From: a virus
Taxonomy: Duplodnaviria; Caudoviricetes
Strand: one strand, 5' to 3'
DNA: 34,782 nt
IMG/VR virus record: IMGVR_UViG_3300020239_000010
Coordinates: 1 to 34,782 of that record
The number at the start of each line of letters is the position of its first letter. Position 1 is the first letter of the stretch. The notes below the pieces were generated by a model. That model was not told where the DNA came from. It saw only the letters and a list, made by a program, of their open reading frames with translations, and did not search any database. Of the stretch, positions 13,470 through 18,093 are shown piece by piece. The position numbers and the translations under genes were made by a program.

Positions 13470-14217
13470 AACTTATACGTATGACAACTCACCTGACTCA
13501 GAAGTTCTAACCGCAGAGGAGCAAGACTCCCTTGAGGTAGGTAAACAACTTAGAGCAGAGCAGGAAAACCTGCTGGCTGGTAAGTACAAAGATGCACAAG
13601 AGCTAGAGTCTGCTTACCTTGAGCTTCAAAAGAAGCTTGGTGAAAACAAAGAAGAACCTGCAGAAGAACCTGAGCCTGAGGAACCTGAAAGCAATCCTAA
13701 TGTGGACATGCTTACCTCAGCTTCTCAAGAATATGCAGAGAAAGGTGAGATGTCCAAGGAGACATTTGAGTCTCTTAAAAACATGAGCAGTGAGGATCTT
13801 CTCAATGCTTACATCGAGATGCAAAAGGGCAACACCGTTGCACCTCCTGTTGAATTGAATGACTCTGACATCAGTGACCTTAAGTCATCGGTTGGAGGTG
13901 ATGAAGCTTACGACCAACTTACTGGCTGGGCTTCTGAGTCTCTTTCCGATGCAGAACTTGACGCCTTTAATGCAACCGTTGAAAACGGAACAAAGGCTCA
14001 AATTCAAATGATGCTGTCTGGCATCAAAGCCCGCTATGAATCAGAGAATGGATATGAAGGTCGGCAGTTGCAGGGCAAACCGCCCAGCGATGCTGGTGAT
14101 ACCTTCCGCAGTCAAGCTGAACTTATTGCAGCAATCAATGACCCACGGTATGACCGTGACCCTGCATACAGGAACGACGTCCTGATGAAGCTTGAAAGAT
14201 CTGACCGACAATTCTAA
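13462..14217 (+). CDS. Capsid scaffolding protein (gp9 homologue)
   Basis: Acidic; LLAGKYK..ELE.AY.ELQKKLG, VGG.EAY, DPRY..DPAYR. Confidence 0.93.
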   Translation: MAETYTYDNSPDSEVLTAEEQDSLEVGKQLRAEQENLLAGKYKDAQELESAYLELQKKLGENKEEPAEEPEPEEPESNPNVDMLTSASQEYAEKGEMSKETFESLKNMSSEDLLNAYIEMQKGNTVAPPVELNDSDISDLKSSVGGDEAYDQLTGWASESLSDAELDAFNATVENGTKAQIQMMLSGIKARYESENGYEGRQLQGKPPSDAGDTFRSQAELIAAINDPRYDRDPAYRNDVLMKLERSDRQF

Positions 14218-14408
14218 TGACCACCGTAACTGAAGACAGGGGTCGAATAAACCTCTACGCAAAAGAACCACCCATGGAGATTATCGACGTGTACGAAACA
14301 CACAATGAAAAGGCTGAGAAGCTTAATGGCCGTGTTGCTATGCTTGGCATCATGGCGGCTCTTGGTGCTTATGCAATCACTGGTCAAATTATCCCCGGAG
14401 TTTGGTAA
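14217..14408 (+). CDS. hli: High-light-inducible protein
   Basis: AEKLNGRVAMLG chlorophyll-binding motif and TGQIIPG C-terminus. Confidence 0.95.
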   Translation: MTTVTEDRGRINLYAKEPPMEIIDVYETHNEKAEKLNGRVAMLGIMAALGAYAITGQIIPGVW

Positions 14409-14527
14409 TGCCTGGACATTACGGATCCAAAAAACCTGCCGCTAAAAAAGCTGCAGCAAAGATGAAGAGCAAAGGTGTGCCTGCCTCTGTGCGTAAGGCC
14501 ATCGTCAAAAACATGAAGAAGAAGTGA
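14408..14527 (+). CDS. 39-aa Lys/Ala-rich basic protein
   Basis: Manual read MPGHYGSKKPAAKKAAAKMKSKGVPASVRKAIVKNMKKK; TAATG coupling with hli; fills the gap exactly. Confidence 0.7.
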   Translation: MPGHYGSKKPAAKKAAAKMKSKGVPASVRKAIVKNMKKK

Positions 14528-14528
14528 C

Positions 14529-14786
14529 ATGGCACGTAAGAAGGTCCGCAAAAAGAATGTCAGTCTGAAGATTGGCAAACATAAATCTCGCTCCGGTGGC
14601 TTGACAAAAGCTGGCCGTGAGAAATACAATAGAGAGACAGGATCAAAGCTTAAGGCTCCTCAGCCTGGCGGTGGTCCACGTAAGCGGTCCTTCTGCGCTC
14701 GCATGTCTGGTGTTAAAGGACCAATGAAAGATAGCAAGGGTCGTCCTACACGAAAGGCTCTTGCACTACGCAAATGGAAATGCTAA
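14529..14786 (+). CDS. 85-aa highly basic phage protein (possibly DUF6321-like)
   Basis: GGLTKAGREKYNRETGSKLKAP...RKRSFCARM...ALRKWKC, a family recalled from marine phages. Confidence 0.8.
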   Translation: MARKKVRKKNVSLKIGKHKSRSGGLTKAGREKYNRETGSKLKAPQPGGGPRKRSFCARMSGVKGPMKDSKGRPTRKALALRKWKC

Positions 14787-14787
14787 C

Positions 14788-14943
14788 ATGGCTGCAAAAC
14801 GAGGTCTTTACGCAAACATCCACGCTAAGCGCAAGCGCATTGCTGCTGGCAGTGGTGAAAAAATGAGAAAGCCTGGTAGTAAAGGAGCACCTACCAAAGC
14901 TAATTTTACCCGCTCCGCTAAAACTGCTAAAAAGAAAAAGTAA
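14788..14943 (+). CDS. 51-aa highly basic phage protein
   Basis: MAAKRGLYANIHAKRKRIAAGSGEKMRKPGSKGAPT.ANF..SAKTAK; ATG at 14788. Confidence 0.8.
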   Translation: MAAKRGLYANIHAKRKRIAAGSGEKMRKPGSKGAPTKANFTRSAKTAKKKK

Positions 14944-14950
14944 CACACAC

Positions 14951-15295
14951 ATGAAATCTATTATCGCTTCCGGTCTCCTCCTCGGCATGGCACATGGTGC
15001 CGCTATTGCTGGTCCCTACGTGAACGTGGAATCCAACTCCTCTTACACCGGCTCTGACTACACCGGTACTGCTACTGATGTCCACTATGGATATGAAGGT
15101 GACAACTGGTATGTCCAGGGAGGTACTACTCTCCTGGCTCCTGATGCTGGAGATGGTTCTGTGGAGCTGTCCGGTAAGGCTGGTGGTTCCTACTCTTTGA
15201 GTGAAGAGCTGTCTCTGTACGGTGAAGTGTCCTTCATGGGCGGTGATCCTGACAACTCCTATGGCACCAAGATCGGTGCTAAGTATTCCTTCTGA
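14951..15295 (+). CDS. Secreted small outer-membrane beta-barrel-like protein
   Basis: Signal peptide (MKSIIASGLLLGMAHGAAIA), alternating amphipathic strands, C-terminal beta-signal-like YGTKIGAKYSF. Confidence 0.7.
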   Translation: MKSIIASGLLLGMAHGAAIAGPYVNVESNSSYTGSDYTGTATDVHYGYEGDNWYVQGGTTLLAPDAGDGSVELSGKAGGSYSLSEELSLYGEVSFMGGDPDNSYGTKIGAKYSF

Positions 15296-15393: not shown

Positions 15394-16466
15394 CCGCTGT
15401 ACTTCAACAACAACAGAGGTCTACCTGGGATGAGTTTTGCTCCTGGGTAACCTCTACTAACAATCGACTTTATGTTGGCTGGTTTGGTATCCTCATGATC
15501 CCAACCCTGCTGGCTGCTACTATTTGTTTCGTAACTGCATTTATTGCAGCACCACCTGTAGACATCGATGGAATCAGAGAACCAGTCGCAGGATCCCTCC
15601 TGTACGGAAACAACATCATATCGGGAGCCGTCGTTCCGAGCAGCAATGCCATCGGACTACACTTCTACCCAATTTGGGAAGCTGCTACACTTGATGAATG
15701 GCTCTACAACGGGGGTCCATTCCAGCTTGTCGTTTTCCACTTCCTCATTGGCATCTATTCTTACATGGGACGAGAGTGGGAACTTAGCTATCGACTAGGT
15801 ATGCGCCCCTGGATCTTCGTCGCTTACTCTGCACCTGTTGCAGCAGCGAGTGCCGTCTTTCTGGTGTATCCCTTCGGACAAGGATCTTTCTCTGATGCAA
15901 TGCCGCTCGGCATTTCAGGTACCTTTAATTATATGTTTGTCTTTCAGGCAGAGCATAACATCCTTATGCATCCATTCCATATGCTGGGAGTTGCTGGAGT
16001 CTTCGGTGGCTCTCTATTCTCTGCTATGCATGGTAGCCTGGTTACCTCCTCACTTATCCGTGAGACTACTGAAGAAGTAAGCCAAAACTATGGTTACAAA
16101 TTCGGACAAGAGGAAGAGACTTACAACATTGTTGCCGCTCATGGTTATTTTGGTCGTCTTATCTTCCAGTACGCCAGCTTCAACAATAGTCGTAGTCTGC
16201 ATTTCTTCCTGGCTGCTTGGCCTGTGGTTGGCATCTGGTTCACTGCGCTAGGTGTTAGCACTATGGCTTTCAACCTGAATGGATTTAACTTCAACCAATC
16301 CATCCAAGACCGTGAAGGTCACGTTATCAATACGTGGGCGGACATCCTGAACCGAGCTGGTCTCGGCATGGAGGTCATGCACGAACGCAACGCCCACAAC
16401 TTCCCGCTTGACTTGGCTGCTGCTGAGACCACCCCTGTGGCTTTGACTGCACCAGCAATCGGCTAA
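15390..16466 (+). CDS. psbA: Photosystem II reaction centre D1 protein
   Basis: Unmistakable D1 sequence ([50 protein letters not shown]); uninterrupted. Confidence 0.99.
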
Positions 16467-16477
16467 TCATTTTCGTA

Positions 16478-16680
16478 CGTTCATCCTATGTTTGACATCC
16501 GAGTAGATGATGGTGGTGCACGTATTATTCGTGACGCCCTAAGAGAATACAAACGAACCTGGTCTGGTGGTCATCCACAAGAACAGATTGATATTGAGTT
16601 CTTAGAAACACAGTTTACCAAAATGGTACTCGAAGCAACATTGGACGCATGATCGCCTAAGCATGGAACGGGGCTTAGGT
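16478..16680 (+). ncRNA. Glutamine-II (Downstream-peptide) riboswitch with a greatly expanded P2 loop
   Basis: CGTTCA-TCC (16478-86) ... GGA-CGCA-TGAT-CG-CCTAAGC-AT-GGAACG-GG-GCTTAGG (16643-79). P1 CGTTC/GAACG, P2 TCC/GGA, pseudoknot CCTAAGC/GCTTAGG; sits just upstream of a YRG peptide ORF. Confidence 0.8.
16488..16652 (+). CDS. 54-aa hypothetical protein nested inside the riboswitch
   Basis: Manual read MFDIRVDDGGARIIRDALREYKRTWSGGHPQEQIDIEFLETQFTKMVLEATLDA; strand-helix-WxGGxPxEQ-helix pattern that I recall from small cyanophage proteins. Confidence 0.7.
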   Translation: MFDIRVDDGGARIIRDALREYKRTWSGGHPQEQIDIEFLETQFTKMVLEATLDA

Positions 16681-16697
16681 TTATTCCTGTACGAACT

Positions 16698-16814
16698 ATG
16701 TCTGACCTCGAAAAGCGTTACATCATCAATGCTTACAACAAAATGCTCCGTGAGGAGAAAGAGTTGAAGCTTTGCTATCGCGGAACTGCTTACAAAAAAA
16801 CTGTTCTGAACTGA
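16698..16814 (+). CDS. DUF4278-like 'downstream peptide' (38 aa)
   Basis: Manual read MSDLEKRYIINAYNKMLREEKELKLCYRGTAYKKTVLN with the LxYRGxxY motif, directly behind the riboswitch. Confidence 0.8.
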   Translation: MSDLEKRYIINAYNKMLREEKELKLCYRGTAYKKTVLN

Positions 16815-16820
16815 TCTGGT

Positions 16821-16854
16821 GACTCAGGGGGAGGTTCGATTCCTCCCCTCAGTT
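16821..16854 (+). other. tRNA-like minihelix hairpin (T-arm plus acceptor-like stem)
   Basis: GACTCAGG-G-GGAGG-TTCGATT-CCTCC-CCTCAGTT; canonical 7-nt T-loop on a 5-bp stem; no D or anticodon arm. Confidence 0.55.
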
Positions 16855-16855
16855 A

Positions 16856-16937
16856 TTGGCGTTGGCCTTCTACGGAAGATACCCTTCGCCGTCATGACGG
16901 TGGGAAAAGACCACAAAAATTTTGATCGATCGAAAAG
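16856..16937 (+). promoter_or_regulatory. Structured leader / putative regulatory region of the capsid gene
   Basis: CTTC-TACG-GAAG UNCG hairpin 16867-78; perfect palindrome CCGTCATGACGG 16889-900; GTGG..CCAC; TTTTGATCGATCGAAAA near-palindrome. Confidence 0.45.
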
Positions 16938-16968: not shown

Positions 16969-18093
16969 ATGGCACAACAGTCTTCTACGTTGACCACTAG
17001 CCTTACACGGCCTGGTCAAGCTAACTCTGCGGGTAACGCCCGCGCCTTGTACCTTGATCTCTTCTCTGGAGAGATGTTCAAGGGCTTCGAGAATAATGCA
17101 ATCGCTCGTGACCTGGTCATGCGGCGTACCCTGAAGAACGGCAAGTCTCTTCAGTTCATCTACACCGGTCGTACCACGGCTGAGTACCACACCCCAGGCA
17201 ACGCAATCCTCGGTAACACCGACGGTGCGCCTCCGGTGGCCGATAAGACCATCACGGTCGATGACCTGCTGATCAGCTCCGCTTTCGTGTATGAGCTGGA
17301 TGAGACCCTTGCTCATTACGAGCTGCGTGGTGAGATCTCTAAGAAGATCGGCTATGCACTCGCTGAGAAGTATGACCGTCTGATCTTCCGTGCTATCACT
17401 CGCGGTGCTCGTGCTGCTTCACCGATCACCAAGGCTAACTTCCTTGAGCCCGGTGGCACCCAGATCCGTGTCGGTTCTACCACCAACGAATCTGATGCGT
17501 TCAACGCTCAGAACCTGGTGGCCGCCTTCTACGACGCCGCTGCTGCGATGGACGAAAAGGGCATCAGCCAAGACGGACGTGTGGGTGTTCTTAACCCTCG
17601 CCAATACTATGCACTGATCCAAGAGGTCGGTGACAACGGTCTGGTGAACCGCGATGTACAGGGTGACTCCCGTCAGCGCGGACAAGGCATTGTCGAGATC
17701 GCTGGTATCAAGATCTACAAGTCCATGAACATTCCGTTCCTGGGCAAGTACGGTACGAAGTACGGCGGCACCACTGGTGAGACCGATCCTGGTAACACCG
17801 GTAGCTTCATTGCTCCTACTCCTGAAAACGCCTCCGGCGCTACCGCTGGCATCAACAACGACTATGGTACTAACGCCGAATTGGGCGCTAAGTCCTGTGG
17901 TCTTATCTTCCAGAAGGAAGCCGCTGGCGTTGTCGAAACCATTGGACCCCAGGTCCAGGTGACCTCGGGCGACGTGTCTGTGGTTTATCAGGGTGACGTG
18001 ATCCTTGGCCGTCTGGCTATGGGCGCTGATTACCTGAACCCTGCTGCAGCCGTTGAGCTGCACGTGGGCGCTACTGCACCTTCCGCTTTCTGA
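16969..18093 (+). CDS. Major capsid protein (gp10 homologue)
   Basis: ALYLDLFSGEMFKGF, RTLKNGKSLQFIYTGR, ITVDDLLISS, GYALAEKYD, GRLAMGADYLNP; strongly biased codon usage. Confidence 0.98.
   Translation: MAQQSSTLTTSLTRPGQANSAGNARALYLDLFSGEMFKGFENNAIARDLVMRRTLKNGKSLQFIYTGRTTAEYHTPGNAILGNTDGAPPVADKTITVDDLLISSAFVYELDETLAHYELRGEISKKIGYALAEKYDRLIFRAITRGARAASPITKANFLEPGGTQIRVGSTTNESDAFNAQNLVAAFYDAAAAMDEKGISQDGRVGVLNPRQYYALIQEVGDNGLVNRDVQGDSRQRGQGIVEIAGIKIYKSMNIPFLGKYGTKYGGTTGETDPGNTGSFIAPTPENASGATAGINNDYGTNAELGAKSCGLIFQKEAAGVVETIGPQVQVTSGDVSVVYQGDVILGRLAMGADYLNPAAAVELHVGATAPSAF

Follow-up and report, generated by a model that had tools for sequence, protein, structure and literature searches.

Organization of the locus

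The window, by which we mean the whole stretch of DNA that was analyzed, is a 34.8-kb record (34,782 nucleotides) of a marine T7-like cyanophage. Its gene order is portal, scaffold, hli, a Phage_OMP gene, psbA, a split aptamer and the major capsid gene. The psbA gene (PF00124; 15390..16466, plus strand) stops 11 nt 5′ of the first aptamer base, C1, and 21 nt 5′ of the ATG of a small gene enclosed by the aptamer, and the T7-like major capsid gene (PF21703) follows at 16969..18093 on the same strand. The segment 5′ of psbA (14217-15295), with hli (phrog_178) and the Phage_OMP β-barrel gene (PF24653), is ordinary cyanopodovirus content. Extra small ORFs such as gp31 of S-SBP1 come and go in the gap between psbA and the aptamer (loci L002, L010 and L015, and RNA contig 20 of run X19), a region named genomic island II in passages of PMC7885011. 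A promoter scan returned a single weak site at 16443-16470, with 2.8 sites expected by chance.

The aptamer elements, all on the plus strand, are distributed over both sides of the enclosed gene. Using the numbering in the available passages of the glutamine-II crystal paper (PMC6698751), the 5′ core CGUUCA (16478..16483) corresponds to C1-A6, the first strand of the pseudoknot helix, and occupies positions −10 to −5 relative to the inner ATG. No Shine-Dalgarno sequence is visible ahead of this ATG in the window sequence. The core is followed by the 5′ strand of hairpin P1 (16484..16492), consisting of UCC (TCC, 16484-86), which pairs with GGA at 16643-45, and an extension U-AUGUU that includes the start codon. 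The nested gene (16488..16652) encodes a 54-aa protein of family phrog_628, predicted to be a two-helix hairpin with a W-x-G-G-x-P-x-E-Q turn. Its codons 50-53 form the 3′ strand of P1, AACAU-U-GGA (16637..16645, with AACAT at 16637-41), and the linking strand C17-G18-C19-A20 (CGCA, 16646-49) is the end of the Asp codon GAC plus the Ala codon GCA, directly followed by the TGA stop (16650-52; together 16646..16652). Hairpin P2 (16656..16679) pairs CCTAAGC (16656-62) with GCTTAGG (16673-79) around the loop AUGGAACGGG (16663..16672), which represents A33-G42 and the second pseudoknot strand and reads ATGGAACGGG in the DNA at 16663-72. A predicted outer helix, P0, joins TTCGTACG (16472..16479), which includes C1 and G2 of the aptamer, to TGTACGAA (16688..16695). 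The latter covers positions −10 to −3 of the next ATG and is the likely expression platform for a downstream peptide of 38 aa with a YRG motif (16698..16814), which is DUF4278-like (IF17-like).

A first-pass annotation made from the sequence alone had described this arrangement, and all the aptamer elements and the ORF were found where it had placed them, including both strands of the proposed ATGTT/AACAT extension (16488-92 and 16637-41). It had called the gene-bearing hairpin P2; in the passages of PMC6698751 this hairpin is P1, and P2 is the second one.

Identity and conservation of the aptamer

Comparison of the whole window with Rfam at gathering scores gave no match to any family. Below the gathering cut-off of 33 bits, the glutamine-II model (RF01704, Downstream-peptide) found only the 3′ half of the aptamer, at 20.6 bits, as had been anticipated for a split form. 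At 20.6 vs 33 bits it does not score as a compact aptamer, and we class the split aptamer as a variant of RF01704, outside its canonical membership. Instead of deleting the insert in silico, we used a natural unsplit allele, L104, which differs at 1 of 46 bases from the two halves in the window and reaches 44.2 bits. The ligand-contact and core bases C1, G2, U3, G18, C19, A33, G35, A38, C39, G40, G41 and G42 are all present in the window; the glutamine contacts given in passages of PMC6698751 include C1, G18, C19, C39 and G40.

To score conservation independently of the aptamer, loci were chosen by the nested protein alone. This set, drawn in part from the best 80 of 384 confirmed relatives, comprises 157 loci in 80 distinct regions, of which 77 were assessable. 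The 5′ core occurs in all 80 regions and both halves are exact in 75; the remainder are explained by a U34>G change (2 regions), a contig end (2) or truncation (1). In the 77 assessable regions the 12 core and ligand-contact bases are invariant, CGTTCAT and GACGCA occur in 77/77, and ATGGAACGGG is exact in 75, the other two being the U34>G variants. P2 retains at least 6 contiguous pairs around the AUGGAACGG loop in 75/77, with several pair types per position. The aptamer bases inside the reading frame are fixed down to synonymous sites: codons D53 and A54 are GAC in 73/73 and GCA in 73/73, compared with 102/380 and 120/310 for the same codons elsewhere in the ORF, and interior codons of the nested gene show mixed synonymous sites under conserved residues.

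P1 was examined in a pool of 123 distinct split sequences, taken from loci selected either by the protein or by the pattern. Pairs 1, 2 and 3 are formed in 123, 123 and 122 of them. In pair 3 a non-coding base is matched with the third position of a codon some 155 nt away; the pair is C-G in 61 sequences, U-A in 53, U-G in 6, G-C in 2 and mismatched in 1. On a tree of the ORF interior it underwent 12 changes: 7 double changes, 4 to or from a wobble pair and 1 to the mismatch. A crude null model expects 1.1-1.7 shared branches; a test on independent pairs was not significant with its 4 well-supported pairs, and recombination of the cassette as a unit could inflate the number of double changes. 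End-to-end pairing had a mean energy of −10.0 kcal/mol vs −5.1 kcal/mol under synonymous resampling. It was stronger than the resampled sequences in 117 of 120 cases, 76 of them at p up to 0.05 (p 0.03 for the window), and in the MYEI and MYQI groups it was no better than the synonymous null. An in-frame stop lies within two codons of GCA in all 120 in-frame split sequences vs 40 of 59 unsplit ones, and TAA is used at this site in 32 of the 123 split sequences and in none of the 59 unsplit ones.

Judged from these sequence patterns, both aptamer halves and the nested gene are under selection, and the split aptamer very probably remains able to fold and to bind glutamine. The construct crystallized with ligand had its P1 loop swapped for UUCG (PDB 6QN3; passages of PMC6698751), so this hairpin is peripheral.

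The nested gene and its protein family

The nested ORF has 63 clusters of close relatives in the protein collection, and a wider library yielded 205 representatives (E ≤ 0.001). In cultured phage S-SBP1 it is annotated as gp32, contrary to the earlier concern that gene callers might drop it. The parts left unannotated are instead the aptamer and the downstream YRG peptide, both missing from the GenBank entries of L002 (S-SBP1), L003, L004 (S-RIP1) and L005 (P-SSP7). The protein encoded in the window matches phrog_628 over its whole length (E 1.7e-4), and all 43 of the aligned nested proteins match this family, with a best E of 6.8e-19.

Purifying selection on the inner ORF, for which the first-pass annotation had proposed a test, was clear. 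By the Nei-Gojobori method, applied to 63 sequences and 878 non-independent pairs with dS between 0.05 and 1.5, the median dN/dS was 0.10 and all pairs were below 1; two distant subfamilies gave 0.06 and 0.10. The structure is predicted with confidence as a two-helix hairpin (pLDDT 90), and the homologue of phage P-RSM1 shares this predicted fold (TM 0.90). Searches of the nested protein gave no Pfam family, no match among PDB sequences and no Foldseek hit in the PDB better than E 1.3. Fold comparison with VIA returned generic helical hairpins (best Z 7.4), and the matching ESM Atlas clusters and viral folds are unnamed or uncharacterized. No nuclease or maturase domain was detected by Pfam or PDB sequence comparison, and the fold matches were generic helical hairpins only.

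Nested-gene subfamilies diverge down to 26% identity, and in every case seen the start codon lies 3-11 nt from A6; in the group of L226 and L542 the AUG is just outside P1. A few loci differ in detail at the other end or in the interior. In L226 and L280 the usual frame is closed by a TAG inside the 3′ strand of P1, the nested gene of L321 ends in another frame, and that of L082 has lost about 11 codons in frame while both halves of the aptamer are retained.

Abundance and exchange of split and unsplit alleles

For an estimate that is unselected for the insert, 120 viral matches to a glutamine-II pattern were read by eye. Genuine aptamers accounted for 58 of them, 7 of which are split. Scaled to an estimated total of about 4100 matching stretches, this suggests that a glutamine-II aptamer may be present in roughly 2000 of them. 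Where enough flank was available, 212 of 252 glutamine-II aptamers precede a T7-like capsid gene. A search with the split pattern covered 120 of about 250 estimated viral stretches, and 106 of these loci were genuine, carrying the same W-x-G-G ORF family. Two further ranges of insert size contributed 6 loci of a 60-aa subfamily (a sixth type) and 10 loci with a non-coding extension of P1; the three size ranges scanned yielded a single gene family in the P1 loop. Unsplit aptamers with P1 enlarged by about 30 or 50 non-coding nt were seen at L101, L147, L151, L155, L528-L531, L533, L536-L539 and L541, and L528 and L529 still score above the Rfam cut-off.

A scan for the split aptamer in 4 of 64 parts of a host genome collection was dominated by chance matches (0 of 120 loci genuine), and 48 viral loci matching a split glutamine-I pattern included none with a convincing aptamer or a phrog_628-type ORF.

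Versions with and without the insert coexist among related phages. Of the cultured phages, S-SBP1 carries the split aptamer and S-TIP37 an unsplit one; S-TIP37, S-TIP28, S-RIP1, P-SSP7 and MedDCM-OCT-S04-C24 score 46.5-54.5 Rfam bits, and unsplit phage relatives overall 44-56. On a capsid tree of 123 rows split and unsplit alleles interleave with 15 changes, 43 of the 120 forks being without resolution, and in DNA run X13 an unsplit allele is joined to the same flanks. The end of psbA adjoins the aptamer in 160 of the 231 split loci in which psbA was found upstream. In the five cultured T4-like phages examined, the distant relatives whose gene context was covered, the phrog_628 homologue is free-standing, after uvsY or a gp53-like gene, and no glutamine aptamer lies within 1.2 kb of it. 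As to the origin of nesting, the best protein tree requires 2 changes, and a single clade is compatible with the data (p-AU 0.32, 49 columns). The P1 loop behaves as an exchangeable cassette that is empty, holds non-coding hairpins, or holds diverged members of one gene family.

Contigs from four metatranscriptome studies cover parts of the split form, and one of 714 nt runs from psbA through the whole aptamer. Since RNA libraries can hold DNA, these contigs are modest support for transcription, and their depths do not rank expression.

Downstream peptide and outer helix

A short ORF is indeed present downstream, as the first-pass annotation stated; its label as a DUF4278 peptide is less firm, because the match to PF14105 (E 0.013, 16.3 bits) is below the Pfam cut-off of 25.3 bits. 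The downstream peptides of 10 of 15 relatives match the same model at E 0.003-0.03, none reaching the cut-off. The YRG motif is present in 18 of the 18 downstream peptides shown, a set that was selected for YRG.

The predicted helix P0 (16472-79 with 16688-95) brings C1 and G2 together with the start region of this peptide. Its strands match each other better than permuted pairs in both split (78 combinations) and unsplit aptamers (54 combinations), with 0 of 300 permutations as good in each case; kinship is not accounted for in these permutations, and the script mispicked some of the downstream starts. In the subfamilies of 59 and 60 aa P0 is weak, at about −1 kcal/mol. The geometry fits two published ideas: the proposal that the pseudoknot competes with a structure hiding the ribosome binding site (passages of PMC6698751), and the ON response of a glutamine-II-class aptamer from MED4, whose reporter rose after ammonium addition (passages of PMC6212724).

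Beyond the downstream peptide, 16815-16925 holds a hairpin with a tRNA T-arm-like loop, GGTTCGATTCC, at 16833-16843, and, ahead of the capsid gene, non-coding sequence that is conserved, with a 78-82% match to several cultured podoviruses. Comparison with Rfam gave weak matches at chance level only.

Folding model

Folding was modeled at equilibrium; pseudoknot geometry is outside the model, and the bound state was mimicked by a constraint. For the window, P1, P2 and P0 are all predicted to form without ligand. The P1 probability is 0.73-0.86 in the free state, and the bound-like constraint hardly alters P1 or the AUG; P1 is predicted at >0.5 in 94 of the 123 split sequences. P0 stays 0.83-0.99 formed with 6 pairs. 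The inner AUG is predicted to be unpaired at 0.09 in the free state vs 0.07 in the bound-like state, which tempers the suggestion of the first-pass annotation that glutamine-stabilized folding could hide this codon. Withholding the pseudoknot bases opened the −12 to −1 region of the downstream gene from 0.39 to 0.51 in the model and left its AUG unchanged, whereas holding the ORF and its start region open raised the predicted unpaired fraction of the downstream AUG from 0.05 to 0.68. Taken as a whole, the window did not fold better than shuffled sequences (z −0.38).

P1 and P2 are also described as present without glutamine in passages of PMC6698751. Given this and the model, which pairs P1 and the AUG without ligand, if the inner gene is controlled at all, a kinetic contest is more probable than a simple equilibrium switch. 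A long P1 is required anyway to close a loop of 150 nt, so conservation of P1 is no proof that the AUG is regulated.

Proposed mechanism and alternative explanations

The 5′ core and P1 contain the start region of the nested gene, whose last codons and stop codon are spread over P1, the linking strand and the linker. By geometry, ribosomes on the inner ORF must traverse P1, the ligand-contacting C17-G18-C19 strand and the linker, as the first-pass annotation had reasoned. The size of the ribosome footprint makes an initiating or terminating ribosome incompatible with a folded aptamer. Aptamer folding and translation of the nested gene are therefore likely to be mutually exclusive.

We lean towards a contest between ribosomes and RNA folding that glutamine would bias, with high glutamine lowering expression of the nested gene and raising that of the downstream DUF4278-like peptide. 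The AUG would be accessible while the following ~150 nt are transcribed, so that a first ribosome could load, and ribosome traffic would then hold P1 and the linking strand open. Between ribosomes P1 would close and glutamine could lock the pseudoknot. The locked pseudoknot would hold bases −10 to −5 and keep P1 shut, so that re-initiation would fall; at the same time it would remove C1 and G2 from the P0 helix over the downstream start region, as proposed for the ON switch of the host. The architecture is well supported, and two-output switching is what we infer from it. The full reading is that a single aptamer forms a two-output switch whose own core shuts the enclosed gene and turns the next gene on, that nested translation gates the sensor, and that the aptamer halves serve as recombination arms of a cassette moving among cyanophages. 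Taken as a whole, we consider this plausible, at slightly less than an even chance.

The main competitor to this contest, which seems to us rather unlikely, is that the gene is a passenger, picked up by the only loop of the aptamer that tolerates an insert, within a recombining genomic island. The aptamer would then control the downstream peptide only, and the rate of nested translation would depend on ribosome loading during transcription or on coupling to psbA, and little on glutamine. The prediction that P1 is shut with or without ligand is in keeping with this idea, as are the non-coding inserts accepted by the same loop (L528 and L529 passing the Rfam cut-off), the interleaving of alleles on the incompletely resolved capsid tree, the unsplit X13 allele at the same flanks, the free-standing T4-like homologues (5/5, no aptamer nearby) and the frequent position of psbA directly beside the aptamer. 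A purely neutral site, however, would be expected to collect other island genes too, whereas all long inserts found belong to one family, down to 26% identity, with the start region in the core or P1. The constant spacing of 3-11 nt between A6 and the start codon also counts against it, since an initiating ribosome and the pseudoknot cannot coexist there, a point that rests on geometry and general knowledge of the footprint. A different possibility, which we regard as improbable as the sole explanation, is that translation gates the sensor, the nested gene acting like a leader ORF: its translation would block the aptamer and P0 so that the downstream peptide is made, glutamine would be sensed only on messages with an idle inner ORF, and the downstream response would be damped or even inverted. 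The modeled release of the downstream AUG by an opened ORF, far above the bound-like effect, agrees with such gating, and so does the stop codon, which in 109 of 123 sequences is placed where the P1-P2 linker begins; a ribosome terminating there would reach into P2. Against a leader function alone, the dN/dS of about 0.1 and the free-standing homologues show that the protein itself matters. Gating is compatible with the ribosome contest, and both can hold together.

Two further explanations concern whether the aptamer is functional at all in its split form. If the insertion had broken the riboswitch, the halves would be leftovers or chance matches, and a sub-threshold Rfam score is what one would see. 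The invariant core, the frozen synonymous positions and the compensatory changes in P1 and P2 across subfamilies with 26-30% identical proteins make decay very improbable, and chance is countered by the single difference from L104 (1/46, 44.2 bits) and by the recurrence of the same ORF family in 106 of 120 split-pattern loci. Removal of the insert from the RNA in an intron-like manner would restore a short aptamer, and P1 does hold the insert ends together. The window has no Rfam intron or ribozyme match, and contigs of the four metatranscriptome runs contain no joint that skips the insert, a weak argument as contigs drop rare forms; we give excision practically no weight.

Relation to known systems

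The closest known system is the compact glutamine-II riboswitch (RF01704, type 2; PDB 6QN3; passages of PMC6698751, PMC6212724 and PMC2864571), which has the same core, the same order of P1, pseudoknot and P2, and the same place ahead of a short ORF, here putatively DUF4278-like. The difference is that here the P1 loop houses a whole gene, which shares its start codon, last codons and stop with the aptamer. Long variable insertions at tolerant sites of aptamers are described in passages of PMC2258182 as non-conserved stem-loops, whereas the insert found here is a conserved gene with its own start region buried. The same passages report aptamers that hold a ribosome binding site in the core and attenuate translation directly, and the survey discarded aptamers overlapped by an ORF over >60 nt as mostly annotation errors.

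Protein genes within the loops of functional RNAs occur in group I introns, whose peripheral loops can carry homing endonuclease ORFs, and in HEARO RNAs. In the present case the host RNA is a metabolite sensor in an mRNA, the 54-aa protein is without a nuclease match, and no splicing is indicated. Small RNAs that fold across a long intervening stretch include the fungal long-range TPP riboswitch and the split mammalian hammerhead ribozymes; their intervening RNA is intron or UTR, whereas here it is a translated gene of bacterial type whose translation must melt the core.

The usual view of riboswitch aptamers is that they are compact and located outside genes. The first-pass annotation knew of no description of this layout, and our literature search, which covered subscription journals and supplements thinly, likewise turned up no publication in which a gene lies within an aptamer of the glutamine or any other riboswitch class. 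Glutamine riboswitches in a few phages, or non-coding insertions in aptamers, are treated in PMC2864571, PMC12379486, PMC9004378, PMC7885011, PMC9964418, PMC5473149, PMC2258182, PMC12695635 and PMC9602691, and the available passages of these papers do not mention a nested gene. Ames and Breaker 2011 is cited in passages of PMC6698751. According to passages of PMC5473149, a survey from 2017 reported only two glutamine aptamers in cyanophage genomes. An aptamer enclosing a conserved gene is common, with ~250 viral stretches matching the split pattern and 106 of the 120 examined being genuine, and it exposes a blind spot of covariance-model searches. If the two-output reading is true, ocean phages would commonly carry a novel riboswitch architecture that standard RNA scans fail to see. 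Switching of this kind would link the nitrogen status of the host to two phage proteins, likely with opposite signs, and would imply a role for the phrog_628 family at low glutamine.

The same protein family, with the same predicted fold, is known from T4-like cyanophages as phrog_628 or cluster 876 (SSM2_123 of S-SM2, gp7 of syn9, SWZG_00136 of S-SKS1). The T4-like members examined stand free in their genomes, whereas the T7-like members are nested in the aptamer.
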